Source: an uncultured Clostridia bacterium (GTDB taxonomy: Bacteria; Bacillota; Clostridia; Christensenellales; CAG-917). Taken from it: a stretch of 64,000 nucleotides of DNA. Positions 1 to 63,993 of this stretch are shown here, one piece after another; the stretch's first letter is position 1; every line of letters begins with the position of its first letter. The translations under genes and the position numbers were made by a program. A model generated the notes under the pieces. That model was not told where the DNA came from, made no database searches, and worked only from the letters and a program-made list of their open reading frames with translations. Where the stretch lies: NCBI GenBank assembly GCA_947383095.1, contig CANDBZ010000001.1:1671-65670 (forward strand), read 5' to 3'.

Positions 1-10
1 AGGACGATTG

Positions 11-48700: not shown

Positions 48701-51700
48701 ATATTGAGGTGCGGGTTGATATTGTCCAGCAGGTTTTGCACAAGGGACATCATGCCCGCGGTGTTGGATATGGTCAGTCCCGCGTATCCGCCCGCGTTTA
48801 TCTCGTCCATGACGGTGGTAGCGTCAAAGAAACCCTTGCCTACAGCCAACTCTATGGGATTGATGGATATCGTCATCGACGTGCCCACGTTGTCGAGAAG
48901 CGCGCCTATAGCGATCCTGTCTATGCCTTTTGCGCCGAACTCGAGGCCGAGGTCGATGCTCTGGATATCGGGCAATTCAAACGGAAGATCCACGCCGGCA
49001 AGCAACGTGTTGATAAGGCCCATATTGAACGACGTGCCTATCCTGCCGTTGCTCAAGTTGATCTCGAGGGACAGATCGGTCTGCTCGTTTGCGGATGCGT
49101 CGGCTGCCGCGTCTTTCGCGCCGTCGCCGGACGCCGCGGAAGCCTCTGCGGAGGTGTTTGCCTCCTCATAAGGTCTCGCGCCGAGCAAGCCCGCGATACC
49201 CTGCACCTTGAGCTTGCCGAGTCCGAGTCCGCTCAAGTCGAGATATATCGCGTCGGAATAGATATTGCCGTTCGTGCCCAACTCGTATCTTCCCGTCGTC
49301 CTGTTGTAAACCAACTTGGAGCTGCCGAGATAATACGCCTTGAGAATATCCTTGTTCAAGGGCTCGCCGGCGCTCAACGTGATCGCCAGATCGCTGTGGA
49401 GTATGCCGCCAATGCCGTACAGCATGACCGCGCCCAGATTTACGTTGCCCTGTATGTCAAGATTGAGCACTACGCCGTTGGGATCCGTGCCCTCGCCGAA
49501 GACAAGGCTTATTGGCGACAGCACAAAGTAGTGCGTCGCAAGATCTTCTCTGTCGGTCGGCTTATACTTCTGATCTTTGTCGTCCTTATCGTAGTAGAAC
49601 CACTTGCCCTTGTTTGCCTCGAGCTCCTTCTTCTTGTCATCGCTGTTTGTGGAGAACTTCCGGAAGTTGCCGAATATCTCCGTGCCGTTGAGCAAGGTGC
49701 CCAAAAGCGTATTGGTAATCCAGCCGGACACGCTCTTGTTATACTTCTCGTCTGCGGACGTGAGACCCGCCGAGTTTATCTTCACCTTCATGCCGAGGTG
49801 CAGACCTATCGTGGGCAGGTTGAGCAGATCGAGTATGTTCACGTCCTCGCCGCTTATGAGCGTGCCGATATTGAGGCTGCCGATTTCGGTATAAGCAGTC
49901 TCGTCGCCGCGCTTCGTCTTCATCGTCGCGACGCCGCCTTTCACGTCCTTTGAAACATTGGGCATAGGCAGATCGAGGCACATATACAGCGCGTTGTCAA
50001 ACTTCAGATTGAGGCTTATCGTCGTCTTGTTTTGATTGTCTGTGGAGAAACTGAACAGTATATCGCCGATATCGGGCAATAGATCCTGCGTAGTATCCAT
50101 GCCGCGCACCTGCATTATCTTCTTATAAATGACGTTGACAAGCTCTGTGTTTATCTGCAGCAATATCTTGCGCGGATTGAACATGAGGATAAAGTACTCC
50201 CAATCCTTCTTGAGAGAGTCGAGAGCCGCGATCTCGTTCTTGCCCGCGGTCACGGCTTCCGCCGCAGGTTCGGCCGCGCTGTCGCCGCCCACCTTGTCGA
50301 GCAAGCCGCCGAGCACGTCCTTAAGCAAGCCGTTGAGACCGAGGTTTTTGAGCTTGATCTTCGCCGTGTTGCCCAAAATACCGCTCAAGTCGACGTACAG
50401 ATTGTCCATCATCACGTCCTTGCCCGAGCTGTCCTTATCCATCTCGCGAATGAGATAAATGCCCAGCAACGTCTTTTGCGGATTGCCTTGGAAAGCGTAT
50501 TTGACAAGCTGTATGGACGCGTTGACGCCGTATGTGGCAAAGTCGATCGCCGCCATCAGATCCAGCTTGAGGAACGCGCTGCTGTTGTTGCCCAGCTCGC
50601 CGTCGATATTGAGGAGCAGCTTCGTCTTGAGACTGCCGCCGTCGGAATTGCCGTTGACAAGACCTATGATCAAGTCAAGCACCTTGGACAAATCTATCGA
50701 ATTGCCGTCGTCCTTGCTTCCGCTGCCGTACAGCCACACGTTGACGCTCATCGACAGCATTGCCTTGAGGTCCTTTACCTGCACGTATTCGTCAAACGTC
50801 TTTTCGCCGCCTTCCGTCTTGGAAGTGCCCATCGTTGCGAGCTTGTTGAGAGAGAAGGGCTTGTTGACCGCAACGTACAGGTCGTGCAGACTTGCCGATA
50901 TCTTGAAGTCGCCCAGACGTACGTACGCGCCCGTGCTGCCCTCCGCAGGATCGAAGCTTGGATCTTTAGTATCAAAGTCCGCGGGCATATCGTACGTCGC
51001 GCCCTTCCATGCGGAATACGCATAGACCTTGAGCGCATATTCGTCCGTGGACAAAAGCACGTACGTGTTGGCGTCGATATGGTCGGCGTCATATTCCTCG
51101 CCCTTGTGAACTTCAGGGTCGAATTTCGTGTGCGAGCCGTCCTCGTTCTCAACAAATCTGTCGCCCGTCCAATTCGCGCCCGTAACGCCGTTGTCGAGAT
51201 ACTTGCCGTTTTCGCCGTATTTCTCGTTGTATTCCTTGACGGAGATATAACGTCCGTCCACCTTGCCGTTGTCGCCGGCCTTGAAGCCGAGATTGACGTC
51301 GATCGAAGGCGCGCTGCCGGAGAAGTTTATCGTGATGCCGCTCGTCGTGCTGTCGTCGGAAACGAACATCTTGGGCAGGAAGTCGCGTATGTTCTCGAGC
51401 GCGGAGCTGTCCGAATCCGCAAACATCTCAACCAAAGAAGCAAGCAGATTTTCGTTGAGCCCCAAAATCAGATAATCTCTTGTGAACAGCAAGCGGCCGA
51501 TGAGCACGTCAAGCACGCTCCAGATATTCTCAGGCAGTATGCCGGAGTTTATTTCATCGTCGACTACCGCCGCCGCGCCCGCGTCCGTGCCGTCGCCGAA
51601 GAGCAACGACAGATCCAAGCCGTCTATCATGCCATAGGAGAAGAAATCGCCCAGATTCACGATGTCGCCTATTGCCTTCGTGTCGAGATAGGCATACAGT

Positions 51701-54700
51701 CTGTGAACGTTCTGCTCGTCCTTCTTCACTTCCAGCCACAGCTTCGCTTTGGCGGTCATGGGTTTACCGTCATCCTTCACGTGCAACGTAGAAGTATACT
51801 CGAGCTCCAGATAGATCTGCGCGCCGTCGAGCACGTCGAGCAAGCCGACGTTCTTGTCGCCTGCGATGAGCTTCACTGCGTTTTGCATAGGCAGATACGC
51901 CTTAAGCGCGCCGCCGAGAGATATCTCGCCGTCGTATTCCGCGTCGTTCATGAGCGAAGCGATGAGGAAGTACATATACTCGCTGATATCCGCACCGAGG
52001 AAGCTTGTCAGTTGATACGTGAAGTTTATCAGGTCCTTCGCCTTTATGGAAAGGTCGATGTCGATGCCCAGCTCCACATATTTCAAGCCGCCGAGCATGC
52101 TCGTCATATCCAATTTCGCGCCCGAAAGCAGGTCGTTGAGGTCTATAGACAGAGCCTCCGTATAACGGCTGAAATTGCCGTCCGCCTTAAACGCCTCGAC
52201 TTCCTTGCCGTACTTGTCGGCCTCCGCCCTGTCGGTATAACCGTCGCCGTTGTCGTCTATGGGCAGGAACGCGACGAGCAATTGCAATTCCTCGTTCTTC
52301 GGGTCTTTTATCTCCTCATCTGTCGCTTTCCTGTACTGCAACGTGCCTTCGCTTGTGTCCTTGATGCACACAACGAGCTTGTCCTTGTTCGCGGCGTCGT
52401 TCTTTTCGGCGTCGGTCGCCTTTCTGTATTGCAGCTTGCCCTCGCCGGTATATCCGTCAAGCAGCTGCTTGCTTACGGCGACGTAGTTTGAATTCTTATT
52501 GACCGCAAAGAGCTTGCCCGTGAAGTTTGCAAACGCTTCGCTGTCGCAAATTTCTCTGTACACGGACGAATGCAATCTCGTCTCCACCTGGTTGATAGGC
52601 ACGTGGCGTCCGTTTTCGTTGAGCGCATACAGGATCCCGAGCTTATCCGCGTTCGTATTGTATCTGTCGTCGTGGACGGAGCCGAACGCATATCTGTTTT
52701 CGTCAAGCAGCTTGCTCATCGTCTCGGGTGCCTTTGAATAGCGTTGCGGCGCGCCCTCGAACGGCGCGAACCTGCGTCCGCTGTAGTTTGCGTCCGTTAT
52801 AGCGACGATCATTCCGTCGTCGTTCAGCATAAACTCGCCGTCTTCATCCTCGCGGTATTCCACCTCGTCCGCGTCCTTATAGAGCTTGACGAAGTTGGCG
52901 GACTTAAAATCCTTGCCGTAGCTGCCCTTCTCGTCGTAATAGAAGTTGGCGTGATAGAAGATATCGTTGCGGTCGGTGAGCACCTTATTCATATCCGACT
53001 CCACGCCGAATACTATGGAAGACGAGCCCTCGCCGCCGTTGAGCCCCTGTATCGCAAGGCCTGCGTCTATAATGGGAGTCTCGCCGTCCTCGCTGAACAG
53101 CATCGCGCCCAAAGCGAGACTGTACGGGTTCAAATCCGCCTTGACGTAGATCTTTGCGTTGGGCAGCATTTCGCCGATGTTCTCCATATTGGGCACAACG
53201 TTTTGCAACACCGCGCCGAGGAAGCCCATCGTCATGTTGACCGCTATCGCGTTTGTAAATATGTTGAGATACAGCGTAGTGGCATTGGGGTCTTGCCCGT
53301 TCGCATACTTGTCGCCATCTACGCTCTCGTCTCCGCCTTCGTTATCGCCGTCCGCGGCGGCAGCCGCTTCGACGCTCGCGTTCGCGTCTTTGTTTATCAA
53401 GCCGTTGAGCACGTCTTCAACGGAATATCTGCTCAAATCCACGTAGATTTTCGCGTCCTTGCCGAGCAACCATTGCAAATCGACATAAAGACCCGCTTTG
53501 CCCGTATCTTCGTCGCGGTCGTAATACAACCCTACGATGTGCGTCAGCGAGCCGTCTCCCTGTTGATTCCACGCGTCGATAGCGACGTCGAGGTCGTGCA
53601 CAGTGAGACCGAATTCCGGATAGACCGACAGCTCGAAGGTCAAGTCGATACGGATCGTGAAGTAAACGGTAAGCACGTTGCCTTCCTGCACCTGTATCAT
53701 CGCGCCCATGTTGCCGAGCAAACCGCTCAACACTTCGTTGACGGGCTCTTTCACGCCGTTGTAATTGTCGTCGCCGAGCTTGGAATTCGCCCATACGTAC
53801 AGCTTATTCTCTTTCTTGAGCGCGTCCGCGTCGTCGTTTGCGCCGAGCTGCACGTATTCGCCTTGATATCTCTTGAACAGTATTCCGTCCAAAACATTAG
53901 CAGGCACGTCGTTGCCGCCGTTCTCGGGATGCAGATTATTGTACAGTCCCTTATACGTATCGTACGGGAAGTAGATCTTGCCCGAGCGCACGTAGAAGTT
54001 GCCGTTGAGCGTAAACGACAGATAATATAGCTCGTTTATAGATACATAATCCTCATAAGGATAATTCGGATATTTCGTCTTGTCGCCGAAGTTCGGCTTC
54101 ACGATATCGCTCTGTTGTATGATGCGTATGGAATAATCGTCCGGACCGAACTTATCCGCTTCGTCGGGGTCGATGATCATCCACTTACCCGTACCGTTTG
54201 CGACGTTCTTATAGGCGTACCTTCTGTATATGTATTGACGCTGTATCTTCACATACGGACCGTCTTTTTCTATTGCCACATAGTATTCCTTTCCGCCGTT
54301 TGCGATTTCCGCGAGGAAGTCGGGGAATTGATCCGCCGTCGTTGCGGCAGGCACATATCCTCTTTCGCCGTCCAAAATCATAAGCGTCTCGAGGTCGATC
54401 GGATAATACTCGTTAAGATACTCGTAATAACGCGGGCTCTCGAAATATGCCTGCGTAGAGAACGAGCTGTTGCGGTAATAGTCGGATATCCACGACACAA
54501 GGCCGTCGCTCTCCTTATCCTCGCTGGTAAACGAATATTCGTTTATCTGATGATAACGCGCGCTGACGGGGATGCTGGTCACGCCGTAGTCCGCCGCCTC
54601 GCTGCCCTTCACGTATTTAAACTCTACCGCATCGAACACGGGGAAGTTGATATCGAGAGACACCTCGTAATTCCAAAGATACAGATCAAGTGAAATGAAC

Positions 54701-57700
54701 GGATAACGGGTATCAAGCTTTTCGACGCAATACAGATTTTCCATGCTGGCGCGCGTATACTTGCGCTCTTGGTCGATCTGAACGTCATCATCCTCAAACG
54801 CCTCATCCTTGACGATTGTCGCTATCCTGTAGAGCACGGGAAGATCTATGCCGTAAACGCGCTTCGCGTCCGCATTGGTCTGCGCCTGTCTGCGCTGCAG
54901 CTCGTTGGCTTCGCTATACAGCACGAAGCTGTCCGTCAAGTTGCCTTGTCCGTCGAGAAGTCTTATATAGACGGGCACCGATTTGACGTTGTAATAGAAC
55001 GCCTTGCCCTCCGCAACTTTTTCGTCATAGAGCTTCTTCTCGTTCGCGCTCATCTGCGCCGTCAACTCGAAGGCGCCGTCCTCCGCGACGTAATACGAGC
55101 CGTTTGCGTCCGGCGTGACCTCGAAGCGGTACGGAGAAGCAGCCATGGTCTTGACGACCTCTTGTTGCTTCTTGATACGCTGCTCGAGCGTGACCTTGCC
55201 GTCGGTGACGTCGTCCATCGTCGGAATTCTGTCGACGATATCTTTTACGTTCGTATACGTATGCTTCGTCATGTCCGTAAATAGCGTAAGACTCGGTTTG
55301 TTGGCAAATTCCGCCTCGAATTGGATCGCGTCCTCGCCCATCACAAGCTCGAGTATCTTGTTGATATAATTGGGATTGACAAGCGCCTGCACGTATCTGG
55401 AGGTTATGCTGAAGCCGTACAGGAACGTCCTTATGTATCCTAGCAGGCTTTCATCCTTTATCAGCGGGAATATGTCGTCTTCGGCAGAATTCGCGTCGTC
55501 GGCAGCAAACATCGCTTCCGTCTCCTCGGAACCGATAATGCCGGAGAGCAATCCGCGCATAGTGGCGCTGTCGACGGATATGCTCGGCATGTTGAAATAG
55601 CTCAAGTCGATATAAATGCCGCCGCCCACGCGCTTAAACTCGCCGTAGGGATTGGGATAGCAATAGCTGGAGTCGTAAGAGTATCTTTCGCCCTTGTATT
55701 GCGTGCCCGTGATAGTCTTATAAAGTCCGTCCTTATCGCGGAAGTACGCGCCGTATTCCGTCTCGAAATAATGGTCGTATCTGTCGTCGGGATGGACGTA
55801 TTTTTCGTTAAGCTCGGTCTTTTCCGCATCCTTGAATTGAGTCTTTTCTTCTTCGGTCAACAGCTCGAACGTGCCGCTCAACATATAAATTCCCAGCAAA
55901 TCATGGAAATCGCTGTCGTTACCGCCCTTGGTCTGCAAAACTATCGAGAGGTTGAAGAAGCTAACCAGATCGGACAGCAGCTCGGACATATCGATGTTAT
56001 CCTTGTTTTCGATGATCTTGGCCAACAGCTCGAGAGTATCCCACAAAGACATCTCTCCGAAGAAGATATCGTCGTCGTCCGCGTATTTGACAAGCTGCGT
56101 GCGCGCATAATTGACAAGCGCCATGCTCTGCAGATCCATGTTTATGACGGCGCGGATCTGACGGTTTACGTCGCCGCCGTCATCCGCCTGCGAAATTATC
56201 TTTATAAGGTCTTCGGACTGCATCGACGGTATAAACGCGGCGATGATCTCGCTCAAGTCTATGTCGTTGTTCTCGCCCGTCTTGAAACTTGTGGTTATAT
56301 CGATGACCTCCGTCAGCTTTATGCGGTCAAGGTCGCCGAAGTTGGTGTACTGCGCAAGGTCTTCGCCGCCGAGCGAATAGTTTTTGGAATTTGTGAATTG
56401 CAAATCCATATCGCGTATGCCAAGCGTGAGCCCGAGGTTGAGGTCGTACTTTCCGCCGTCGCCGACAAAGCCGTTATTTGCCACCGCGCCCGCCTTAAAC
56501 AAGTAGATAACGTCTCCCGTTTGTATCGGATATATGGCGGAACCCATGTTTTCGCTGCCGCCGCCAGCGGGATTGTCAAGCATTTCGCGCAGATAGAACG
56601 TGCCCTTTTTGCCAACGTTCGGGTCAAAGAAAACCCTGTATTTGACGTACAGCTCGGTCTCGTCAAACTGCTCGTCGGGTCTTGCCACGCGGAAGTACGT
56701 GCCGTCCTCGCCGAGCACGTAATAACCGCGTTGAGTGGACTTGGTCATATTGTCGACCTGCACGCTCTGTCCCTGTCTTCTGAAGACAAAGTATCTGTTG
56801 TTGCTGTTGACGTCAAGCAAGCGGTTTCTTACGTGCTCCTCCGGAGTACTGTCGCGGGTATCCGTGACGGTCACGGGATTTGTATATCTGCCGCCGTCGA
56901 GACCGAGCCCGACCTTCGCCTCGAGGTCCAGGCCGTCGGAGGTATTGAGCTTGATTTGCAAATTGCCGTTTATCTCATCGTAGAACAGGTCCTTGATATC
57001 GAAGCCGAGCAAGCTTTCGGGGATATATTCCAACACCGTCTTGAACAGCTTGTCTCCCAACGCTATGGTAAACAAATCCTTGTTGAACAACAACGAGAGC
57101 GCAAGGTTCTTGTTGCTGAAATCCGCGTCGCCTATCGCTCCGGATACGCCGTCGGCAACGCTGCCGTCCGCAGCGCTTCCCGTAGCCGCCATAGCGTCCG
57201 TTGCCACGTCGGTTCTCCTGTTGTCGCCGCCCGCGACGAACACATCCGCCAGATCCGCGGGATCTTTGGGAAGTATCGCGTCTATGATATCCTTCACGTG
57301 CACGTCGTCTATGCGCATTCTCGGGATATTGAACATATCAAACAGGTCGATAAACACCGACGAGTTAACGTAGTAAATTCCCGCCCACTTGACGTCGTAT
57401 CCGCTTTCCGTCACAGAGTACAGCTCAAGCTTAAGCTCGGACGTCGAGAAGTCGCCTATGTCAAGCAACAGACCTACGTCAAGCCTGAAGTGCGCGGAGG
57501 ATTTGCCGTTTGACGTCGACGGAAGCTCTACCTTCACGCCCGCCACGTTGCCGAGTATGCCGCTTATGATCTCGCCGAAGTCGATCGTTCCTTCCGTCAT
57601 GCTGAAGTCAAGCTCGACGGAGAATCCGACGTTAATGATTGTATCGTAAAGCGGATTGCACTCCATATCGTCAAACTTGGCTTTGGTCTCTTCCGGCAAA

Positions 57701-60700
57701 TCGCTGCGATACTGTACAAGTATCGTCTTGCCGTTTTCGTCCTTGCTCTCGATGTTGTGCACCTTTTTGTCGTTGATGCAATCGGGCAACAGCTCGATGC
57801 CTGCGCCAAGGTCAAGGTCGAGTCTGCCCAACCTCAAGCCCATGCTCAAGCAGCCTGCGGTGAGGTCCAAGCCTATCATAAACTCTTCAAGGTTGCCGTA
57901 GTTGTTTACCGTGCGGTAATACTTGCCCTCGGGGTCCTTGACCCAGCCGTAAAGACGGGATTTGAGACCCGTAACGAGAATGTAATTGCCGTTGTAATTG
58001 ACGTATCTGCGATCGCCCTCCTCGTTTACGAAATAATCGGAGGTCTCGTCGCCCGTTTCCGAAGTATACAAATTGTACACGCGCAATGAGACGGGTGTGT
58101 CATAACCGTCGAGCTGCGCATAGTACACGTTGTTGCCGGAAATATCCTTTGCTTCCGCAACGCGACTTATCAAAGCGAATTCGACGCCGTTGTAAATATA
58201 GGTCTTGCCGTCCTCGTATTTGTCCGCAACGATTTGATTTCCCTCGTCGTCAAGCTTATATATCGTAGTATAGCTCGCTCTGAAATACTGCGGCTTGCCG
58301 TCCGCGCCGGTCGCCACGTAATACTTGTCAAGCTCAACGTCGACATAGGTGTTTGCATCCTCATAGAAGCTGTATTTCTCGTCCGCGTACTTGGAATCCG
58401 GCTTTTCTTCGTCGGTCGCAAGTCTGTCGATAAGTATATACGCGTCGTCGACCTTCACATAGGTCGCGCCCGCCGTATATTCGTCGACCTTCGTATACTC
58501 GCTGTCCGCGCCCTTTTCAAATATATCGGTCGTCTTTGCTCTGAACAGCTTCTGTTCTTCGCCTATGGTCGCGACATAATATACGTCTTTCTTTGTCTTT
58601 TCCCATTCCTCTCTTTCCGCGTCGTCTTTGATCTTGGATATTGGCGCATAGTCGACATTTCCGTATTCAAAGCCGAGCGTGAGCTGCAATACGTCGAACA
58701 CGTCCTCGATAGAGCCGAGGTCCGGGAACATCGTCGCAAACACAAACGCTATAAGAGAACGGGTTATTTGGATCTGGAACGCTTCGTCCGAATACACGAG
58801 CGCGGCGATAGCTGCCCGCGTCGACTGCTCGAGCGCTTGAGTATCGTCGTCCGCCGCGGACATAGCTTCTTTGCCGATTATGCCGCCGATATTGCCTATG
58901 ATATCCTTGACGGTATCCACAACGTCGTCGAGACGGGAATATGTTTCCGCGGTCCTGACGATTTCCGTCGCGTCGAAATAGAGCGAACCGCCGCTCAAAT
59001 ACAAGCCGCCCAAAACATGCAAATTGCCGTTTGAATATCTTGCAAAGTGACCGTCTTCGCCAACTTTCACAAATTCTATTGCGATCTCGAGATCCTTCAA
59101 ATCGCTGTTTGCAAGCGCGTCGCCTATGCTGCCGCCCGCAAGCAAGCCTCTCAAATCCAATTTCGCGAGATCGAGGTTTACAGCTACGTTAATGCCCACG
59201 CCGCCGTTAAACTCCGACTGCGCCTGCAACGCTATGATCATATCCCCGAACAGATTGCTGATAAGACCGCCCGCGTTGTAAGTTTCGATGCTGGAGCTGT
59301 TGAAATACACCAAACCGCCGACGCTGATATAAACGTTCTGGTCGGAATATTGCGTCACGCCTTTCTTTGCGAGGAAGGAGATCTTTTCGATCGGTACGTT
59401 GACGGTTGCGCCGTTGACGGTTTCCGTGACCGCAGTGCGCTTTTGCGTATAGCGCGGCGTGCCCGCCTCTACAGCGCCCTCGATAGCCACATAAACGTCG
59501 TTTTCACTGTCATAGACATAGTTGCCCTTAACGTCGTCTCTGGTATAGTCGAGATAATACGCGACCTCGTCAAGCGCGTCGTCGTTGCCCTCGGACTTTC
59601 TATAAGCCTTGGTGATATATCTGCGCGCATATGTTTTTTGTTTTCCGATATCCTCGCCTTCGTTTATCGCGCGGAATGCGCCGCCAACCTGAATATAACC
59701 GCCCTTCGCGTCCTCGATAAACGTATAATACACGGTGTTGGCAACCACCGCGTCCGTAGCGACGGACACATAGCTGTCGCCGTAGAAGCCGTTGTATATT
59801 TCAAGGATGTTCGTGATATAATCCGCAATGCTTATGAAGTCAAGTCTATCGGCGTCCTCGAGCAGGCTGGGAGAATTGTCAAGGCTGACGAGATCGATAT
59901 CGGCAGTCAAGCCAAGCGTGATGTCAAACGTGAAATTCTTGTCTCCGCTCGGGTCTTTCTTATTGGCAAGAGCCGCAAGAAGCTCGAGGGTCATCATGCT
60001 TTCAAACTTCTCGCCGTACTGTGCAAATCTGTCGTCGGACGGACGCAGGAACAAGCCTGAATTTTCGTCCAAAACCGTGACTTCGGTATCGGGAATGAAG
60101 CCGAAGAGCAAGGATACCAGATCCTTAATCATATTGGACTTGAAGAACAGGCCGAGATAGTCCAATCTGTTGAAATCGGGATCTACGTCCCAAGGCGTGC
60201 CTATAACGACAAGACCTTTGACGACCGAGTTGAGGAAGTCTACAAAGCTTGCCTTCTCTGCCGCGGGAGTGGCTTCCGCCTCGCCGCTTGCGGTCATCAC
60301 GCCTATTTTTGCAAGCAGATCCATGAGATCCATGCTCAATTTGGGACCGCCGACTCCGAGAGTGTCGAGATAGATATCGCCGTCGACAAGATACACGTTG
60401 ATCTTCTTCGTGCTGTCCGCGCCGTCTTCATACGTGAAATCTATCGTGAGCGCAACCTCCAAGGCGCTCAAAATCGTCTTGGTGTCGAGCTTGATGTTAT
60501 TCAGATCTATGTCGGAAAAATCCGCAAGTCCCAGCTTCTCCAAATCCAGACGCGCCTTTATATCGAGCATAAATCCGTCGTTGACAGCGTCGTCAAGCAT
60601 GAAGTTGAGTCCGAGATGTTGCAGCATTTCGGCAAGACTTATCTTTTGGCTTGTGTCAAAGTTGAGATCCTTATCCTCTTTTGTAATGCGGATGATGGGC

Positions 60701-63700
60701 AAGAGGATATCCTTGACGGCGTTCTGCACCGCGTCCATGCCGAGGATCGCGTTAAGCGTTTCGTCAAACGCAAATCCGTCGCGCACAAAGTGACCGTTGG
60801 GGTCGCGCACAAATCTGCCGTCGCTCGCGTTGAGACGGTATCTGCTGCCGTTGTAGGCCTCGAGGCGTTGCTCGTCCTCTATATAGAGATATGTCGCGCT
60901 CGTCTCATAATCGATGATAAGACTCAAGCCGACTTCTATCACGCGCAATTCGTCTCTGCGCTGGAAGTGGTCTTTATATTGAGGCATGCCTTGATGCAAT
61001 TCCTCGTCATATTCGACGTATTTGCCCGTAGCCTCGTCAAACACGTACACTCTGTCCGCCTTGTCGCCCGCGGCGATCAGATCTTTTTTGCTTATAGCTT
61101 CGTCGACGGTAGCGGAAATTTGTCTGTAAACGTCGTTATCCGTGCCCGTCGCAACCGCGGCGTCGCTCAATTTGACGCCGAGAGACAGCAGCTTGCTGTC
61201 GACGTTGACCGCCAAGCCCAACGCGGGACTGATCACGAAATCTATCGAAGCGGACAGACCGAGGTCAAATTTTTCAAGAATACTGCCTATATTTCTATCG
61301 AAATCAAGCGCATACAAGGTAGTTTCTTCTACGTCGACCGCCGCGACGCGCACCTTGACGTAGTTGTCGCCAACCGCCATATACGCTTCTTCCACGCCTT
61401 CGAGACTATTAAGCGCGGTTGCGTTGACGCTTGCTTTGCGATATTGCTTGACAAACGCGCCCGCTACGTCTTTTACAAACTCGCCGTCGTCCGTCTTCGT
61501 ATATCTCTCCGTATATGCGTCGGCAAACGCGTCCTCCGTGTCGATCTCAACGTAAACGTCTCCGCCGATTATTGCCGCGATGAGCCCGACAAGTACGTTT
61601 TGTGTGACCAGAACGCTCAATCTGCCGTCTGCGAGGCCGAGGAGAATATTCATTTGATCCTCCGCGGACAATTGCGCCGCGCCGTCCGTCGCCGCCGCCA
61701 TTGCTTCCGCGCTTGCATTGCTGTTGACCTTGCCCAGCAATCCCGCGACCTGCTTGCAAATAAGCTCCGCAATATTTGTGCCTTCTATATAGAACGGCTG
61801 CTCCGAAAGCCCTCCTAAATCTATATAAATATTAGGACCGCTTATATATATAGCAATAATATTATTATCAAGACCGTGTTCCTCGTCCTTGACTGCAAGC
61901 TCGAGAATTATCTTCGCGCTTGTCGGGTCGTTGACGGTGAGGTTCGCGCCGATCTTGAGAGAAAGCGGATATGTGATATTCTGCTTGAAATCGATATTCA
62001 TCTTGAAGCCGAGGTTTGCGACGATAAGGTCGAGATAATCCTCGAGACGGACGACCTCGTCCTGCTTCTTGATATTGATATCCACTCCCAGATTGGCGTT
62101 GAGCGAGATATTGTCGAAGTTGTCGAGTCCCGTATAATCCGCTTTGTTGAAATAATCGGGCACGACGTCTTCCTTCGTCCCCAATCCGAGACGGATATCG
62201 GAAACTTCGAGACCGAGCTTGATCGGATCGATTTTTAGTTGAAGCTTCGCGTTATATTTCCAAGCGAAAGCGAAATAGCTCTCGTCGCTGTTAAGCTTGA
62301 CAAACTCGTCAGGATCAACGTCCATGCCCTCGATAAGCATATTGAGAAGCATAGAAACAAGCTCCTCGGCAAAGTTCACCTTAATACCCGTGCCGTCGAA
62401 GGTAATGCTGCGCACGAATTTGCTTATCGTGCCGAACATCTCCTCGAGCACGCCGCCGGATTGCTCCGCCGATGCCGAAGCGTCGTTATTTCCGCCGCCT
62501 CCGAAGGAGGAAAGGTCGAGATTGGATACTGCTATGTGGAATTTATCCTTCAAATCGACATACGCCGTCGTCTTGCCCGTATCCTGATCGCTTATGGCGC
62601 GCAACGCCAACAGCAACGCGCTCGCGCGGTCCGTCGCGTTCATCGAGTCGATCGCCTCTATAGCGCCGGAGTAAAGCTCTACGGCTATATCGGAATGGCT
62701 CAATATGTAGTTTATGCTAAACATTTCCGTCGGCAGGTAGAGGTCGACGCCATTGTAATCATCGACATTGTCCGCGGTGATCACCACTTTTGCGTAATTA
62801 TCGCCTACCTTGACGTATGCCGCGCCTTTTTCGATACCGTCGACCTTGCTCAAAGCAATGCCTCCGCCTATGTATTGCTTGTTGTACAGATCGCCCTTAT
62901 AGGCGTTCTCTTTGCCGTTTACTATATCGTCGATCTCGGCTTGTGAAAGCTGTATGTATTTTGTGCCTTCGAGCCTGTAAATCTCGGCAAATTTGGTTAT
63001 ATCGGATTTGTCTACGGGTATAAATACCGCGTTCTGAATAAAGTCGATAGGAACGTTCGGATTGAGTCTCAACTTCAGAGCGATGCGGAAGCCGATATTC
63101 GCGCCCGCGGCTTGCGGTACGTTCAATTCCAACAACATGGATTGCAAGAAGTTGTTCATCGCCTTGTTGTCGCCGTTGAGGAAGGTCGATATCCAACGTC
63201 CGAGATCCCATTTCTCCGTGCCCGATTCCGCGCCGAGCGTAATAGTGCCCTTAACTTCGGCAAAAACGGACGGCAAAACAATATCGCCGTATTCGTTGAA
63301 CAGGGGCACTTCGGTATACAAGCCGTTGTCCGTAGCGGTCAGATAACTGCCCAAAGGCAAAGCGTCCTGTCCTTCGCGTCTGACCATTATTTCGTCGAGG
63401 CGCGAGCCTCCCGCCTTTATGCTTATATCCTTCGCATATACGGTCGCGCCGACCATTTCCTGATTTTCGGTATCCTTGACAAGCGCGTTGACGGTAAACA
63501 CTCTGCCGTCTCTCGCTTCGAGATTGGCCCATGCCACGTCGACCCATGCCGTCAGATCGCCCAGGTCTATGCCCGTCAGTTCAAATACCGCTTCCACAAG
63601 ACCTTTTATCACTCTTATCTGGAAATCCGTAGACGTGAGCGAAGCAATGAGCGAAAGCGCGAGCGCTTTCTTTGCGGTATCGTCCATCTCGTCGACGTCG

Positions 63701-63993
63701 GCGGCGGCACGCGCCTCCGACCCCGCCATAGAGTCCATATTTATCTCGATCGTGCTGTCTTTTGCAAGCAGCTTCAAGATCACGTCAAAGAGATCGACGC
63801 GCACTTCCATCTTATTAAGACCGAAGTTTGTAGCGTCGACGTAAAGCGCCTTGCCGGAGTAATACAAGCCCAAAAGCATTGCCTTTTGCGGAGCGCCGTC
63901 TCCAAACGTCTTGGTGCCGAAAAGCTCGATCAACAGCGAAGAGCGGGTGTTGAGCGTATTGATGGAAGTCTTGCCCAACAGATAATCCACCAC
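39718..63993 (-). CDS. giant repetitive protein of unknown function, at least 8,091 aa, N-terminus outside the window
   Basis: 24,276-nt frame without a stop. The two codons between the ORF-track GTG and the window edge are also sense. TGA at 39718-39720. Acidic, Cys-poor, rich in D/N/G/Y/L. Modular repeats and Ig-like C-terminal motifs seen by eye. No catalytic or sorting motif recognised. Confidence 0.9.
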   Translation of the reverse strand: MVDYLLGKTSINTLNTRSSLLIELFGTKTFGDGAPQKAMLLGLYYSGKALYVDATNFGLNKMEVRVDLFDVILKLLAKDSTIEINMDSMAGSEARAAADVDEMDDTAKKALALSLIASLTSTDFQIRVIKGLVEAVFELTGIDLGDLTAWVDVAWANLEARDGRVFTVNALVKDTENQEMVGATVYAKDISIKAGGSRLDEIMVRREGQDALPLGSYLTATDNGLYTEVPLFNEYGDIVLPSVFAEVKGTITLGAESGTEKWDLGRWISTFLNGDNKAMNNFLQSMLLELNVPQAAGANIGFRIALKLRLNPNVPIDFIQNAVFIPVDKSDITKFAEIYRLEGTKYIQLSQAEIDDIVNGKENAYKGDLYNKQYIGGGIALSKVDGIEKGAAYVKVGDNYAKVVITADNVDDYNGVDLYLPTEMFSINYILSHSDIAVELYSGAIEAIDSMNATDRASALLLALRAISDQDTGKTTAYVDLKDKFHIAVSNLDLSSFGGGGNNDASASAEQSGGVLEEMFGTISKFVRSITFDGTGIKVNFAEELVSMLLNMLIEGMDVDPDEFVKLNSDESYFAFAWKYNAKLQLKIDPIKLGLEVSDIRLGLGTKEDVVPDYFNKADYTGLDNFDNISLNANLGVDINIKKQDEVVRLEDYLDLIVANLGFKMNIDFKQNITYPLSLKIGANLTVNDPTSAKIILELAVKDEEHGLDNNIIAIYISGPNIYIDLGGLSEQPFYIEGTNIAELICKQVAGLLGKVNSNASAEAMAAATDGAAQLSAEDQMNILLGLADGRLSVLVTQNVLVGLIAAIIGGDVYVEIDTEDAFADAYTERYTKTDDGEFVKDVAGAFVKQYRKASVNATALNSLEGVEEAYMAVGDNYVKVRVAAVDVEETTLYALDFDRNIGSILEKFDLGLSASIDFVISPALGLAVNVDSKLLSLGVKLSDAAVATGTDNDVYRQISATVDEAISKKDLIAAGDKADRVYVFDEATGKYVEYDEELHQGMPQYKDHFQRRDELRVIEVGLSLIIDYETSATYLYIEDEQRLEAYNGSRYRLNASDGRFVRDPNGHFVRDGFAFDETLNAILGMDAVQNAVKDILLPIIRITKEDKDLNFDTSQKISLAEMLQHLGLNFMLDDAVNDGFMLDIKARLDLEKLGLADFSDIDLNNIKLDTKTILSALEVALTIDFTYEDGADSTKKINVYLVDGDIYLDTLGVGGPKLSMDLMDLLAKIGVMTASGEAEATPAAEKASFVDFLNSVVKGLVVIGTPWDVDPDFNRLDYLGLFFKSNMIKDLVSLLFGFIPDTEVTVLDENSGLFLRPSDDRFAQYGEKFESMMTLELLAALANKKDPSGDKNFTFDITLGLTADIDLVSLDNSPSLLEDADRLDFISIADYITNILEIYNGFYGDSYVSVATDAVVANTVYYTFIEDAKGGYIQVGGAFRAINEGEDIGKQKTYARRYITKAYRKSEGNDDALDEVAYYLDYTRDDVKGNYVYDSENDVYVAIEGAVEAGTPRYTQKRTAVTETVNGATVNVPIEKISFLAKKGVTQYSDQNVYISVGGLVYFNSSSIETYNAGGLISNLFGDMIIALQAQSEFNGGVGINVAVNLDLAKLDLRGLLAGGSIGDALANSDLKDLEIAIEFVKVGEDGHFARYSNGNLHVLGGLYLSGGSLYFDATEIVRTAETYSRLDDVVDTVKDIIGNIGGIIGKEAMSAADDDTQALEQSTRAAIAALVYSDEAFQIQITRSLIAFVFATMFPDLGSIEDVFDVLQLTLGFEYGNVDYAPISKIKDDAEREEWEKTKKDVYYVATIGEEQKLFRAKTTDIFEKGADSEYTKVDEYTAGATYVKVDDAYILIDRLATDEEKPDSKYADEKYSFYEDANTYVDVELDKYYVATGADGKPQYFRASYTTIYKLDDEGNQIVADKYEDGKTYIYNGVEFALISRVAEAKDISGNNVYYAQLDGYDTPVSLRVYNLYTSETGDETSDYFVNEEGDRRYVNYNGNYILVTGLKSRLYGWVKDPEGKYYRTVNNYGNLEEFMIGLDLTAGCLSMGLRLGRLDLDLGAGIELLPDCINDKKVHNIESKDENGKTILVQYRSDLPEETKAKFDDMECNPLYDTIINVGFSVELDFSMTEGTIDFGEIISGILGNVAGVKVELPSTSNGKSSAHFRLDVGLLLDIGDFSTSELKLELYSVTESGYDVKWAGIYYVNSSVFIDLFDMFNIPRMRIDDVHVKDIIDAILPKDPADLADVFVAGGDNRRTDVATDAMAATGSAADGSVADGVSGAIGDADFSNKNLALSLLFNKDLFTIALGDKLFKTVLEYIPESLLGFDIKDLFYDEINGNLQIKLNTSDGLDLEAKVGLGLDGGRYTNPVTVTDTRDSTPEEHVRNRLLDVNSNNRYFVFRRQGQSVQVDNMTKSTQRGYYVLGEDGTYFRVARPDEQFDETELYVKYRVFFDPNVGKKGTFYLREMLDNPAGGGSENMGSAIYPIQTGDVIYLFKAGAVANNGFVGDGGKYDLNLGLTLGIRDMDLQFTNSKNYSLGGEDLAQYTNFGDLDRIKLTEVIDITTSFKTGENNDIDLSEIIAAFIPSMQSEDLIKIISQADDGGDVNRQIRAVINMDLQSMALVNYARTQLVKYADDDDIFFGEMSLWDTLELLAKIIENKDNIDMSELLSDLVSFFNLSIVLQTKGGNDSDFHDLLGIYMLSGTFELLTEEEKTQFKDAEKTELNEKYVHPDDRYDHYFETEYGAYFRDKDGLYKTITGTQYKGERYSYDSSYCYPNPYGEFKRVGGGIYIDLSYFNMPSISVDSATMRGLLSGIIGSEETEAMFAADDANSAEDDIFPLIKDESLLGYIRTFLYGFSITSRYVQALVNPNYINKILELVMGEDAIQFEAEFANKPSLTLFTDMTKHTYTNVKDIVDRIPTMDDVTDGKVTLEQRIKKQQEVVKTMAASPYRFEVTPDANGSYYVAEDGAFELTAQMSANEKKLYDEKVAEGKAFYYNVKSVPVYIRLLDGQGNLTDSFVLYSEANELQRRQAQTNADAKRVYGIDLPVLYRIATIVKDEAFEDDDVQIDQERKYTRASMENLYCVEKLDTRYPFISLDLYLWNYEVSLDINFPVFDAVEFKYVKGSEAADYGVTSIPVSARYHQINEYSFTSEDKESDGLVSWISDYYRNSSFSTQAYFESPRYYEYLNEYYPIDLETLMILDGERGYVPAATTADQFPDFLAEIANGGKEYYVAIEKDGPYVKIQRQYIYRRYAYKNVANGTGKWMIIDPDEADKFGPDDYSIRIIQQSDIVKPNFGDKTKYPNYPYEDYVSINELYYLSFTLNGNFYVRSGKIYFPYDTYKGLYNNLHPENGGNDVPANVLDGILFKRYQGEYVQLGANDDADALKKENKLYVWANSKLGDDNYNGVKEPVNEVLSGLLGNMGAMIQVQEGNVLTVYFTIRIDLTFELSVYPEFGLTVHDLDVAIDAWNQQGDGSLTHIVGLYYDRDEDTGKAGLYVDLQWLLGKDAKIYVDLSRYSVEDVLNGLINKDANASVEAAAAADGDNEGGDESVDGDKYANGQDPNATTLYLNIFTNAIAVNMTMGFLGAVLQNVVPNMENIGEMLPNAKIYVKADLNPYSLALGAMLFSEDGETPIIDAGLAIQGLNGGEGSSSIVFGVESDMNKVLTDRNDIFYHANFYYDEKGSYGKDFKSANFVKLYKDADEVEYREDEDGEFMLNDDGMIVAITDANYSGRRFAPFEGAPQRYSKAPETMSKLLDENRYAFGSVHDDRYNTNADKLGILYALNENGRHVPINQVETRLHSSVYREICDSEAFANFTGKLFAVNKNSNYVAVSKQLLDGYTGEGKLQYRKATDAEKNDAANKDKLVVCIKDTSEGTLQYRKATDEEIKDPKNEELQLLVAFLPIDDNGDGYTDRAEADKYGKEVEAFKADGNFSRYTEALSIDLNDLLSGAKLDMTSMLGGLKYVELGIDIDLSIKAKDLINFTYQLTSFLGADISEYMYFLIASLMNDAEYDGEISLGGALKAYLPMQNAVKLIAGDKNVGLLDVLDGAQIYLELEYTSTLHVKDDGKPMTAKAKLWLEVKKDEQNVHRLYAYLDTKAIGDIVNLGDFFSYGMIDGLDLSLLFGDGTDAGAAAVVDDEINSGILPENIWSVLDVLIGRLLFTRDYLILGLNENLLASLVEMFADSDSSALENIRDFLPKMFVSDDSTTSGITINFSGSAPSIDVNLGFKAGDNGKVDGRYISVKEYNEKYGENGKYLDNGVTGANWTGDRFVENEDGSHTKFDPEVHKGEEYDADHIDANTYVLLSTDEYALKVYAYSAWKGATYDMPADFDTKDPSFDPAEGSTGAYVRLGDFKISASLHDLYVAVNKPFSLNKLATMGTSKTEGGEKTFDEYVQVKDLKAMLSMSVNVWLYGSGSKDDGNSIDLSKVLDLIIGLVNGNSDGGSLKTKLLLNIDGELGNNSSAFLKLDLMAAIDFATYGVNASIQLVKYAFQGNPQKTLLGIYLIREMDKDSSGKDVMMDNLYVDLSGILGNTAKIKLKNLGLNGLLKDVLGGLLDKVGGDSAAEPAAEAVTAGKNEIAALDSLKKDWEYFILMFNPRKILLQINTELVNVIYKKIMQVRGMDTTQDLLPDIGDILFSFSTDNQNKTTISLNLKFDNALYMCLDLPMPNVSKDVKGGVATMKTKRGDETAYTEIGSLNIGTLISGEDVNILDLLNLPTIGLHLGMKVKINSAGLTSADEKYNKSVSGWITNTLLGTLLNGTEIFGNFRKFSTNSDDKKKELEANKGKWFYYDKDDKDQKYKPTDREDLATHYFVLSPISLVFGEGTDPNGVVLNLDIQGNVNLGAVMLYGIGGILHSDLAITLSAGEPLNKDILKAYYLGSSKLVYNRTTGRYELGTNGNIYSDAIYLDLSGLGLGKLKVQGIAGLLGARPYEEANTSAEASAASGDGAKDAAADASANEQTDLSLEINLSNGRIGTSFNMGLINTLLAGVDLPFELPDIQSIDLGLEFGAKGIDRIAIGALLDNVGTSMTISINPIELAVGKGFFDATTVMDEINAGGYAGLTISNTAGMMSLVQNLLDNINPHLNIEIQSYLWNAVYASRNVFTGLKSMTTHKAATVTLPLVKSYDYANSADKKGQAYQLFLDLRAQRPDYNSPNGTPGLGIVVGGNKVFLRNISVGGSFLNNIDQLGAIKQYLDFDDLNDFIKGTFPLKLAGPTDGDNNEYTYGDKYDYNHKAPTTETDTSSSYSYSANLEGLIKKVELNLFTKSGYQPYYAGMTSSSMSGRTGAGLISAKITLDPDAYNELILMVDCIVLGLLDSLGIKDNYFVDMENNPKATYAKPTEGDNTVTMGNRTVKYTTSTGTSKSLTVAPNYASITSSLETMRKDGASTWDKACMIEPYMRSIPYTLVVGLLKSGLLPVPGSTVDLLLSIAGDTVQNLSKLIGSILPLPFSSGTIDPTLNIYIDLNPSPSNYGLDSTYTMNPGIQAIELMVNGRKNGDGTSMTYNAGPGKIGTEKLGYKPTGTRNTLETVANNDLTSSAWDFFMLRITPYSTVSTSEKSPLLTFDDSDTATALADSVAPPTRINITDPATRRGTMQGGAKDGSTIYLTDKYFTDPTYFPQMANVRFGNGNVSYAATDYNVAPGTYIIWDASSVDLTAAALNKDRLAGYVYGYALNSVVYAIPVYLSDTYAINRDENGVLDVKAFDRTGTGNGTSSYTAKTIGIDIREKNNSGSYRVQLPDLVQMKFNGDSTKRVFGTAKHDEEGKLQYAVFMQNTSTVSGNKRVLTNLNLTQLGTKQEYVKDGEGDYYASSTSTVNPAYRSISGLSAEQLAAQAGNRYKLQTVNVLNDDGGTYMLFPAYNVGLMKAENYTNPFTGDYSVDSEGYVIFNDRKTNKNYYVIDRYLMPSVTSTASKANFPIGVINWDVEACSYDWSGKTLKVGFSYQWGLSAEAKGTLNVNVADYKIGTVTAIRKGSTTLDLTSTRNKDGSYESRLTINPLDLTSASFDLTSYLNGFNTLNGTWAGNGSAFSGYQVKWDLTELQKKIDELTTVKDGKKTINYFEGIKATVTAYVGGDTFKVITADSKKSTEIKIGDDQKSKYGFVGDTDSLHADAGYVAQAVPVTIVVSSYKFESMATEFSFDPYSAVELNSDTLVSNGTDIVINVAAVSGKTEQRTLTVGSDMLKVEAPFIYVNGDYAGAYDNTAYPVSKNAINYNGYSNVLYPLYARITIGTQFSGYQQQYVRINVTSLKADQYDLTVAHEDTFNPVWFEGEAYESLNIKFNNGGITHAMYPDWSTVRYYSNQGMEESARIDNIYGGGTIYAKVEAYVTDGGKDGNKIGLVPDGVDEFGNAKYVMQTIALKLTVERQEIVSVNFFYDAEAGKDIYSMTEDEKKALIASGKIFDPSYYTGTVYGQTHIVGEGATAVAYGIDPISFAASRDAYFGTGNEGEAYWNDPFRGTAVLVNLARGTFIGRRFDVEYVKSDDGKFKLDENGEYVAIPQNELSSFTGDRYMQQATPNDASGDYKLVGATGTYVKLTPGERGDSYIAYIQSWDTDPAVELANANIFGVNSVYLHGIIGNSNIRVEVNIPDYSFAGDGVFENTTLTDMQGSVGGYGDNILTFDYDVHKAWILPDFGTFTTKEGKDPVRASMTWTDYNSPASQEIMTDEDGNKYVEREYSFFDGTTLRYPVDGTFKARIYLVNADDEVVNITLNNGGQTVYDAFDEFTFASTATVEYANGDSAIDVPVRWESKDMPTAEEIAAGRFERTYTVLVSANGAIVSIKRTQAFEITNDYTLEGFDGNAKDGLSMHLTANNFYKGLPRNSVLRVGGKSIDVALAWSDTYTNAGFDGVMTLTVTSEHLVSTVEVNVKVDGAKISGLANGSAYLLDPYGVESTLFASGAAASVNVVGSDGNDYVTDVKATYSLAQVDKALANDDDFYANISKYFGYSYTINVTFTYPGGANVMEEHTEVTVYIVDRTIYYVADYGYRSLVLDTFLHSDPSYLPEALTVKTRADEGVEKTEFVAYFDWSSLNKVFASGRSDLNYMATSMVPVYNINGAYVRKDITDDGIDNPAFVKVEEYEAYKRKTTGDDGWTCPSEERLSLATQRFNLPVTVLERTLKTSEFVFRSNVTELYVDRSNASRVTRTVVGVDSHGNRNDGRYIEITKNNGTGLPEEIVFYNRYSYVGEKGLPAKIRITFTNGDTGVYYITYDGVPSFDELAANAASFSKQVKAHIWSGDPSHEGSFEVMDAFEITFTLRASALSVNNSDVAYNDMSVGDYKYVFSPYESNRNNSAFNTNNYDSFITYYVGGQFISAEDWWNNGRAVGETTTYDANWERHHAVYQVYGGAFAEGDVSTVAFYKYAKSSRSYSKYDGEVIYKDGHYRASDDSSDLYIFIYVTTQNLSAEWDLSETRYGYKGGNTTAKAKVSSLVDGNKCSLDMNVTVHINDGKAATSTFSGLMPAGAVSGVGYIAELGIFTIDPFAASPFERNITANNYPGERYALLADGKYEIADYRYDVTNREYVKLSNAQRPLYGGERYTLLDSGKYVKAEYKLENDKYVQLTYDEIGSYKNFPTSVKLTAANSTETITVPVQWDFTSVNVTYAGGDFVAYAYINADGIYDHERVIGGNNYNEIGVQRLKVTVRVANRSVQGLAADTTKETPRKTLSQQKGYRDAYSSTFDNAELIDAYNYSLPTVPDMLRVSVKGSTFITSGVNIGEQTKTNTTITYYVADKTPSNTTSTAYGGVLKWSFSKYRPSYEGGIVYVTALLTGKDGNVQEFDLPFAVSRKFIHYMSTPSGSPASLSTYVDKDGVATTGVDNKTGERSEGADDKEFTVDPNNGKTLTLPSSYNVSFREFAPTFARKDGKVTVTYANEATIVTSKLFRYSSVSMPAGTKWTVSSSGIRNSGIDKKTATIQIRGQQRVTVRLKVADPVNVTSIDITSPRDSDNTLPTTYSYTDSNNKTHTLKIVWYGTVYVYSASNKNTQITSYPIMLTSTSARVALPSFGARKVEFRLCAAVGTVVDAGGNVLTTTAATTYTVLRNGSVVTTDTPQSTDVIVVAPGQTKPQFQRESGVWTFTLNG
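39721..47316 (-). other. C-terminal Ig-like (Big_4-style) domain array of the giant protein (aa ~5560-8091)
   Basis: At least 10 occurrences of the (L/F)Pxx(V/I)x(V/L)....(V)x(V)xW pattern. Examples: FPTSVKLTAANSTETITVPVQWDF (41176-41250), FASTATVEYANGDSAIDVPVRWES (43714-43788), LPRNSVLRVGGKSIDVALAWSD (43444-43512). Confidence 0.55.
41254..41472 (-). repeat. ~37-aa tandem duplication inside the giant ORF
   Basis: GERYALLADGKYEIADYRYDVTNREYVKLSNAQRPLYG is followed by GERYTLLDSGKYVKAEYKLENDKYVQLTYDEIGSY (aa 7508-7580). Confidence 0.75.
47494..63993 (-). other. supermodule region of the giant protein (aa 1 to ~5500): at least 10 divergent 400-700-aa modules
   Basis: Each module ends in a G(I/L)Y..(I/L)Y(V/I)DL junction followed by an Ala/acidic linker. 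Junction-plus-linker units lie at nt 63670-63873, 61657-61860, 60247-60405, 58822-59019, 57121-57387, 55474-55899, 53296-53538, 51553-51708, 50239-50469 and 49078-49314. A degenerate junction lies at 47539-47586. Confidence 0.75.
52258..52443 (-). repeat. 31-aa tandem duplication inside the giant ORF
   Basis: EGKLQYRKATDAEKNDAANKDKLVVCIKDTS is immediately followed by EGTLQYRKATDEEIKDPKNEELQLLVAFLPI (aa 3851-3912). The similarity is also visible at nucleotide level. Confidence 0.8.

Follow-up and report, generated by a model that had tools for sequence, protein, structure and literature searches.

The giant open reading frame and its repeat module

The DNA analysed here (hereafter, the window) is a stretch of 64,000 nucleotides from an uncultured Clostridia bacterium (assembly GCA_947383095.1, contig CANDBZ010000001.1, positions 1,671 to 65,670 of the forward strand). 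It contains a giant open reading frame (ORF), and the subject of this study is a short peptide motif that recurs in loops along the encoded protein. Residues are numbered from the GTG codon at 63993 on the minus strand, which is residue 1. The ORF is located as follows.

39718..63993, minus strand: giant ORF, 8,091 amino acids plus stop codon; 5′-end cut by the window edge

The codons between the first GTG and the window edge are free of stops, so that the ORF continues beyond the window and the true N-terminus of the protein lies ahead of residue 1. Species-representative genomes, scanned once, yielded 14 orthologous loci, with 41–50% identity. The orthologue ORFs begin approximately 2,100 residues before the point matching window residue 1100, and orthologues and homologues start approximately 1,000–1,100 aa upstream of window residue 1, with lipobox signal peptides of the form MRK...L[VFT]AC. 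These starts indicate that approximately 1,000–1,100 N-terminal residues are missing from the window protein, and that its full length is approximately 9,100–9,200 aa. The lipobox signal peptide (L-x-x-C) was present in 12 orthologous loci and nine homologues (e.g. ...MLFGLVAC and ...LTAC). By analogy, the window protein appears to be a lipoprotein whose own N-terminus lies beyond the window edge, and it is probably located on the cell surface, since its relatives bear N-terminal lipid anchors.

A preliminary description of the window had reported ten low-complexity linkers in this protein (interval 49078–63873), each with a short shared core, and every one of those ten core strings was found exactly once, at the residue numbers given for it. 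The linkers are short loops within a repeated module of approximately 150 aa. A hidden Markov model (HMM) of the module, built from ten junction-plus-linker copies and iterated over the family, converged on 226 instances. It located 11 copies in the window, one more than had been described (the copy at residues 431–576 had been missed), and 14–15 in each full-length relative. The modules occupy the first ~6,000 residues of the protein, with a period of approximately 470–700 aa along the chain. The window copies, all on the minus strand, are listed below with their residues, their cores, the HMM i-Evalue and the basis for the placement of the core.

63490..63948, minus strand, residues 16–168: module copy 1; core EARAAAD, residues 93–99 (63697–63717); 6e-28; core aligned in orthologues
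62266..62703, minus strand, residues 431–576: module copy 2; weaker core DASASAE, residues 504–510 (62464–62484); 1e-10; position-specific scoring matrix (PSSM) score 11.5
61468..61923, minus strand, residues 691–842: module copy 3; core EAMAAAT, residues 763–769 (61687–61707); 4e-26
60019..60471, minus strand, residues 1175–1325: module copy 4; core EATPAAE, residues 1240–1246 (60256–60276); 2e-21; DAMTADD in orthologues
58654..59100, minus strand, residues 1632–1780: module copy 5; core EAMSAAD, residues 1709–1715 (58849–58869); 4e-25; family-wide alignment
56926..57450, minus strand, residues 2182–2356: module copy 6; core DAMAATG, residues 2266–2272 (57178–57198); 3e-21; orthologue alignment
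55255..55962, minus strand, residues 2678–2913: module copy 7; core EAMFAAD, residues 2826–2832 (55498–55518); 8e-22; orthologue alignment
53122..53601, minus strand, residues 3465–3624: module copy 8; core EAAAAAD, residues 3542–3548 (53350–53370); 8e-23; orthologue alignment
51325..51831, minus strand, residues 4055–4223: module copy 9; core DAGAAAV, residues 4137–4143 (51565–51585); 1e-10; orthologue alignment
50005..50532, minus strand, residues 4488–4663: module copy 10; core EAVTAGK, residues 4579–4585 (50239–50259); 1e-21; register from orthologue alignment
48937..49404, minus strand, residues 4864–5019: module copy 11; core EASAASG, residues 4950–4956 (49126–49146); 1e-19; orthologue alignment

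The string first described for linker 9 is present, and the conserved register, EAVTAGK at residues 4579–4585, lies a few residues to its right. Alignment of 75 residues on either side of each string revealed a shared layout, which opens with a strand and a hairpin that closes on G-x-LY-x-D. A short strand and an amphipathic helix with ..GLLGK at its end lead to the linker, behind which come another strand and a helix of the form L..V...L..L. In outline, a β-meander with G-x-LY-x-D in its last, conserved strand thus precedes the helix, the loop and a strand–helix segment. The 87 aligned module copies share 8–44% identity with the first copy, mostly 12–27%, and the two halves of the module co-occur across the loop in all 226 instances, never apart. 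No internal repeats were detected by self-BLAST of the protein; the repeat is visible only by MAFFT and the iterated HMM. Pfam and NCBIfam gave no match in the first 5,000 residues of the giant protein, a Pfam scan of the 87 module copies at E<=10 returned no recurrent family, and neither NCBIfam nor a PDB sequence-profile search with the module alignment matched the module.

The family is narrowly distributed. Only 40 proteins were matched in an exhaustive HMMER search of 1.84 billion cluster representatives, among them full-length lipoproteins of 7,286–7,924 aa, which run collinear with the window protein and are 25–30% identical to it. A protein search with residues 4060–5060 as the query gave one match, and one with the module alignment gave none. 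The carriers of the orthologues are Christensenella-labelled or unclassified Clostridia, metagenome-assembled, with one complete 1.65-Mb chromosome; a few of the orthologue records bear other organism labels. The protein family is confined to Christensenellales-like, small-genome gut Clostridia, and nothing relevant on giant proteins in Christensenellales was found in literature searches. No description of the protein family, of its module or of the loop motif exists in the libraries searched. Proteins of the general type, giant and repetitive, anchored at the surface and with short conserved sites in their loops, are already known. At one orthologous locus (L003; CP091723, a long-read assembly) the ORF is split into shorter frames, the longest of 2,645 aa, with the start region out of frame. 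This break probably reflects assembly frameshifts and not a real pseudogene.

Conservation of the loop motif

The core was retained at every linker in all 14 orthologues when these were aligned with the window protein using MAFFT, while the residues around it differ and gaps open (examples of aligned cores are DAMTADD, DAQTAGD, DASTAAD and EAFVAED). It was also kept in the collinear homologues at 25–30% identity. A shared core had been correctly recognized from the window itself, but the methionine included in it is specific to this genome, and the consensus is rewritten here as [ED]-A-x-[TAVS]-A-[ADS]-[DE], usually preceded by G, S or A and followed by G and acidic residues. The composition of each position, in close orthologues and in all modules of the distant family, is as follows.

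Position 0: D/E 82% in close orthologues; E 66% and D 20% in the distant family
Position +1: Ala 93%; Ala 99%
Position +2: mixed M, S, Q, I and F; V/L/I/M 68%
Position +3: T/V 75%; T/A/S/V, Thr being the commonest residue across the family (49–51%)
Position +4: Ala 80%; Ala 84%
Position +5: A/D/S; A/D
Position +6: D/E 73%; D/E 75%
Position +7: mixed; often G

Per-column conservation is 0.3–0.55 across the linker and peaks at 0.93 and 0.84 at the two Ala positions. Conservation of at least 90% is reached by just two columns of the 87-sequence module alignment, those of the LYxD Tyr and of the first Ala in the core. Compared with their flanks, the aligned linkers show peaks at the core, and the surroundings vary in sequence and length.

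In full-length relatives the motif is present in approximately 11–12 of the 14–15 modules, the first two modules being without it; a count of about ten pieces, as proposed from the window, is too low. The P0016/P0017 lineage gave poor PSSM scores, yet a shifted version, E-E-A-x-[SG]-T-x-[DE], was seen on inspection. The [ED]-A pair is the most constant part of the motif, since it is retained even there.

The spacers flanking the core are of 3–22 aa on its N-terminal side and 2–34 aa on its C-terminal side, and both vary in length among orthologues of the same loop. In module copy 7 the tail behind the core is 8–34 aa long, differing among orthologues; in loop 9 merely two residues separate the core from the next conserved segment. 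The spacers are rich in G, S, A, T and N (50–68%) and acidic, with D+E at 13–32% vs K+R at 1–14%. In linker 6 (approximately window residues 2833–2845) the tail after the core has grown by short tandem units, GENGGENGGENGGENGGENGG in orthologous locus L004 vs a far shorter run in L006, a difference that indicates rapid length change directly beside the conserved core. Small Cys-containing insertions, e.g. H-x-D-x-D-G-D-G-x-C-D-x-C-x-x-x-M-P, were also observed in linkers of the homologues P0004, P0009 and P0010 (at approximately residues 1090–1125 and 2440–2480 of P0004, and 1410–1430 of P0009), either immediately ahead of the core or separating two of its copies (ETAVTAAE-C...DGDGVCDVC-GAAVTADGE). 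Extra mini-domains are thus accepted by the loops, which nevertheless retain the core.

Such loops, rich in small residues, acidic and changing fast in length, might be thought plain flexible hinges or low-complexity spacers, the core being a by-product of Ala/Asp/Glu-rich composition or of repeat ancestry. A PSSM trained on the window and close orthologues only gave 10–14 matches in each of six independent distant homologues, vs one or two in whole-protein shuffles, and 68% of modules scored at least 9 bits, vs 1.5% of shuffled modules. Shuffles of each module's own linker (approximately 37 residues) seldom reached the observed scores: for 47 of 99 modules the real linker scored above at least 99% of its shuffles (p<=0.01). 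Moreover, the Ala at +1 is 99% conserved though the structured parts of the module share only 12–27% identity, and no homogenization at the DNA level was seen. Position-specific conservation thus exceeds what composition provides, in own-linker shuffles and in both orthologue and paralogue alignments, and on this basis the plain hinge, including the 'defined hinge' first entertained, was excluded; the probability left to it is very small indeed. Outside the giant protein the motif was not enriched: the other stop-free frames of the window and the fetched loci, ~105,000 residues in all, gave one match, as did the shuffle.

These data bear out the earlier suggestion of selection on the motif itself: a conserved island (Ala +1 93–99%, Ala +4 80–84%, D/E 82–86%) stands in variable spacers. 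Purifying selection acts on the motif as a peptide, and the spacers around it drift and vary in length. Very probably the motif has been selected as a recognition element and is neither low-complexity sequence nor a plain hinge.

Predicted structure of the module

An AlphaFold2 model of residues 680–860, for which the 87 module copies served as the alignment, had a mean predicted local distance difference test (pLDDT) score of 69. Residues 680–760 (pLDDT 80–94) were predicted to form five strands and then a helix (residues 741–763); in model numbering the strands are at 2–5, 15–24, 29–39, 42–46 and 55–57 and the helix at 62–84, followed by a low-confidence loop. The core starts at the end of the helix, as coil with a pLDDT of ~55, the acidic tail behind it is at 43–47, and the segment after the loop was not confidently placed. 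A second model, of residues 1100–1800 (12 sequences), had a mean pLDDT of 53, with both linkers below 50 and only an inserted hairpin region confident. Neither model gave a significant match in a Foldseek search of the PDB. The low-confidence stretch around the core is consistent, in these models, with an exposed flexible loop.

The hairpin region belongs to a series of insertions rich in short β-hairpin repeats of the form Y-x-x-D-x-x-G-x-Y-V, found at window 59359–59796 (minus strand; approximately residues 1400–1545; e.g. DDVKGNYVYDSENDVYV and YRLNASDGRFVRDPNGHFVRDGF), with similar stretches at approximately residues 815–890, 1040–1065, 1800–2030 and 3690–3900. The insertion at residues 1410–1545 was confidently predicted (pLDDT 74–89) and is absent from the distant homologues P0004, P0009, P0011–P0013 and P0015. 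Insertions of this type account in part for the greater length of the window protein compared with its 7,300–7,900-aa relatives.

The position of the core directly after the module helix raises the possibility of an intramolecular latch, in which the core would be a short capped helix packing on its own or a neighbouring module, with the spacers as mere tethers. The residues are arranged as would be expected of a helix of two turns with small residues along one face; S or G would be its N-cap, the Ala residues at +1/+4/+5 its face and Gly its C-cap. The two residues between core and next segment in loop 9, and the fact that the core Ala and the LYxD Tyr are the two best-conserved columns of the module, also fit such packing. 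However, AlphaFold2 leaves the core undocked, as low-confidence coil, despite the 87-sequence alignment, the spacer lengths on either side differ among orthologues of the same loop, and the P0016 lineage keeps LYxD while its core spacing is shifted. The lineage-wide shifts described in the next section would, in addition, demand parallel changes in approximately 12 paralogous docking surfaces. A latch is considered unlikely.

Concerted variation of the motif among lineages

The variable positions of the core differ between lineages and tend to agree within them. Among copies scored as D or E at position 0, D was found in 10/10, 8/8 and 9/10 copies of L008, L010 and L013, respectively, and E in 8/11, 7/8, 7/8, 8/9, 8/9 and 8/9 copies of the window, L009, P0009, P0011, P0013 and P0015. 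Position +3 is Ala in 7/11 window copies, Thr in 9/12, 10/13 and 10/10 copies of L004, L010 and P0011, and Val in 7/11 and 6/12 copies of L009 and L013. At position +2, Val or Ile is found in P0009 and P0015, Ser in L009 and L010, and Met in the window. Whole-protein composition is nearly equal across the lineages (D/(D+E) 0.54–0.62; A/(A+T+V) 0.36–0.47), and global composition is therefore not the source of these preferences. When residues were permuted among lineages within linker columns, the observed within-lineage identity was reached in only 1/5000, 1/5000 and 3/5000 permutations for positions 0, +3 and +5, respectively; the same test gave no signal at positions +2 and +6.

Gene conversion between linkers was ruled out as a cause, since synonymous codons vary from core to core, the flanking sequences are unrelated and the DNA contains no repeats other than short, imperfect ones. 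The paralogous copies diverged long before the compared lineages split. That all copies shift at once within a lineage is most simply explained by one shared reader with a changed preference, and of the roles first proposed for the motif it is the recognition site that is favoured by this covariation. On balance, reading of all motif copies in trans by a single reader is somewhat the more probable state of affairs.

The same data bear on chemistry at the +3 Thr, by O-glycosylation, phosphorylation or autoproteolysis through an N–O acyl shift. Thr is the commonest residue at this position, and neighbouring genes of glycan-active type are conserved (a GH20, a PIG-L deacetylase and an HGSNAT-like acyltransferase), although these may mirror no more than shared chromosomal order. 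Against this, +3 is Ala in 7/11 window copies and Val in most of those of L009 and L013. The occurrence of Ala or Val in whole lineages indicates that a hydroxyl nucleophile or acceptor is not required, on which ground Thr chemistry was excluded, with only a slight chance left to it.

Possible cleavage or docking

The picture that would follow from these results is one in which the motif is a short linear recognition motif, one per module, and a single common reader would recognize all copies. If that reader is an enzyme, site-specific endoproteolysis would act at or next to the near-invariant [ED]–Ala bond; its effect would be either nicks in the exposed loops or division of the chain into pieces the size of a module, which could remain together or be released. 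Cleavage at or beside this bond is ranked first among the mechanisms considered, if only tentatively, because the [ED]-A pair is the most constant part of the motif, D/E fits the P1 position, the loop is predicted to be exposed and a precedent exists in Mycoplasma (see below). Glu/Asp-specific endopeptidases accept the alternation of D and E at P1.

Several points weigh against cleavage. No protease domain was found in the giant protein, and no protease, sortase or peptidase gene adjoins it in the window, L001, L010 or L015–L018. Most of the conserved positions are on the prime side of the putative [ED]|A bond, an arrangement that would be unusual for a serine protease specific for Glu. Were all the loops to be cut, the lipid anchor would be retained by the first fragment only. 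The invariable pairing of the module halves (226 instances) is as compatible with a loop inside a single fold as with the boundary of a separable piece, and the concerted change could also be explained by a single-copy binding domain or by a shift in a shared structural constraint. The confidence of AlphaFold2 was moderate for the module and low for the 701-aa segment.

Alternatively, the approximately 12 copies may serve as peptides for non-cleaving, multivalent docking to one partner. This partner might be another protein, either secreted or of host origin, or else a domain that occurs once in the C-terminal Ig-like region of the giant protein itself, and the outcome could be avidity or a cross-linked surface coat. 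An exposed loop with flexible spacers on both sides has the architecture of a short linear motif, the concerted lineage preferences support a single reader here too, and docking requires no protease, in keeping with the failure to find one nearby. There is also a precedent in staphylococcal FnBPA, which carries tandem disordered fibronectin-binding repeats. On the other hand, no candidate partner was found, a seven-residue, Ala-rich acidic peptide offers little binding surface, and the motif was absent from other proteins among the ~105,000 residues scanned. Docking is regarded as possible but doubtful.

A number of known sites that resemble the motif were considered and rejected. An autoproteolytic Ser/Thr/Cys site of the SEA, CwpV or Nup98 type is incompatible with a core in which no Ser, Thr or Cys position is invariant. 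A sortase signal of the LPXTG type does not agree with an internal motif that has an acidic tail behind it and D/E, not L, at position 0, and in which whole lineages have Ala or Val instead of Thr. As for the A-x-A of signal peptidase, the residues at −3 and −1 are small, but the strong conservation here follows the putative cut, and the preceding helix is, on inspection, amphipathic and not membrane-spanning. The biotin-attachment sequence EAMKM, cyanobactin recognition sequences and the Bacteroidetes D-S/T-A glycosylation sequon are superficial likenesses, the key residue of each being missing here. Internal translation starts at the ATG of EAM were also dismissed, the Met not being conserved in relatives.

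Comparison with known systems

MARTX toxins are giant secreted bacterial proteins in which the linkers between effectors are cut, after Leu, by the toxin's own cysteine protease domain. The giant protein resembles them in its size and in having short sites in unstructured linkers; it differs in that no cysteine protease or other protease domain is detectable, in its motif, and in being apparently lipid-anchored and not a toxin.

A precedent for cleavage is provided by the P97/P102 surface adhesins of Mycoplasma hyopneumoniae, which are cut at S/T-X-F|X-D/E in disordered regions, the fragments staying on the cell (PMC3322551). In both cases a large surface protein of a small-genome, Firmicutes-related bacterium has several sites per protein, each a short conserved motif with an acidic residue nearby, in exposed or disordered segments between folded parts. 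The giant protein has no Phe in its motif, the constant part being [ED]-Ala, shows no sequence relationship to the adhesins, and has far more regular copies, one per repeat module. Cleavage has been demonstrated for the adhesins, whereas the giant protein is known from its sequence alone.

In repeating β-groove (RBG)/AsmA-like bridge proteins, the RBG unit has been defined as a five-stranded β-meander plus a sixth element that starts as a helix and continues as a variable loop (PMC7613979). The first half of the module, with five strands, a long helix and a variable loop, recalls this plan (in one AlphaFold2 model, mean pLDDT 69), as does the presence of many units in one very long chain. However, no Pfam match to Chorein_N, AsmA, TamB or DUF490 was obtained, Foldseek matched no solved RBG structure (VPS13/ATG2) or TamB structure in the PDB, the module period is approximately 470–700 aa vs approximately 150 aa, and the C-terminal half of the module was not modelled with confidence. 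RBG loops are, moreover, not known to carry a conserved peptide. Relatives of the host are usually treated as single-membrane bacteria. It is a rather improbable extension of these comparisons that the N-terminal ~6,000 residues constitute a new, very long, membrane-anchored β-rich rod, built of units on the RBG plan, with a loop peptide at which a single reader cuts, latches or loads the rod. If true, this would imply a regulated extracellular bridge or scaffold in small-genome gut Clostridia, or a true polyprotein cut into approximately a dozen surface pieces.

Giant genes of uncultivated bacteria, such as the Omnitrophota, also have very long ORFs (bioRxiv 10.1101/2023.11.21.568195). The likeness lies in a single ORF of great length, known mostly from metagenome-assembled genomes and largely unannotated, with internal repeats and surface-type domains; the present protein differs in belonging to the phylum of the gut Clostridia and to a different, very narrow family (40 of 1.84 billion cluster representatives).

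In uncultivated gut bacteria, giant surface proteins built of repeats have remained almost without annotation. The motif offers a clean and testable handle on one of them: a well-defined peptide of seven residues, of which each molecule carries about a dozen copies, kept in a family whose members have come to share as little as 25% identity, and altered in concert within each lineage. This concerted pattern predicts a single reader, be it a protease or a binding partner. The analysis also defines a new ~150-aa repeat module that has no match in Pfam, NCBIfam or the PDB.

The C-terminal region and gene neighbourhood

The C-terminal ~3,000 residues (window 39718–48900, minus strand; approximately residues 5050–8091) contain neither module nor motif. 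They resemble a long run of Ig-like β-domains and are unannotated beyond the following domain, which is the sole Pfam match in the whole protein.

41149–41262, minus strand: Big_4 Ig-like domain (Pfam, E=1e-5, weak)

Downstream of the giant ORF, on the same strand, are rpoB, rpoC, metK, recD2, secA, prfB, rpsL, rpsG, fusA and tuf (NCBIfam equivalogs), with a bifunctional ispDF gene on the other strand. In window 15559–37481 (minus strand), PHROG families match the bacterial rpoB, rpoC, fusA, tuf, prfB and recD2, with E values down to 0, and their phage-style labels alone would mislead toward a huge phage. An origin in a huge phage, as suggested by the PHROG matches 'RNA polymerase beta', 'elongation factor' and 'RF-1', was rejected, since the NCBIfam assignments identify these neighbours as bacterial genes; a search of a phage collection gave no match. 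With it falls any reading of the motif as a phage prohead-protease site. The locus is bacterial chromosome.

Upstream, gene order is conserved in relatives down to 25% identity, and comprises a GH127-like gene, bPH_2 and a membrane acyltransferase of the HGSNAT/Acyl_transf_3 type (L001 and L010, positions 1–3400; L015–L018). The distant relatives (L015–L018) additionally have, upstream, a GH20 hexosaminidase, an unknown gene of ~285 aa and a PIG-L deacetylase. The immediate downstream neighbours are ispDF and rpoB in the window, and Mem_trans and Band_7 in the distant relatives.

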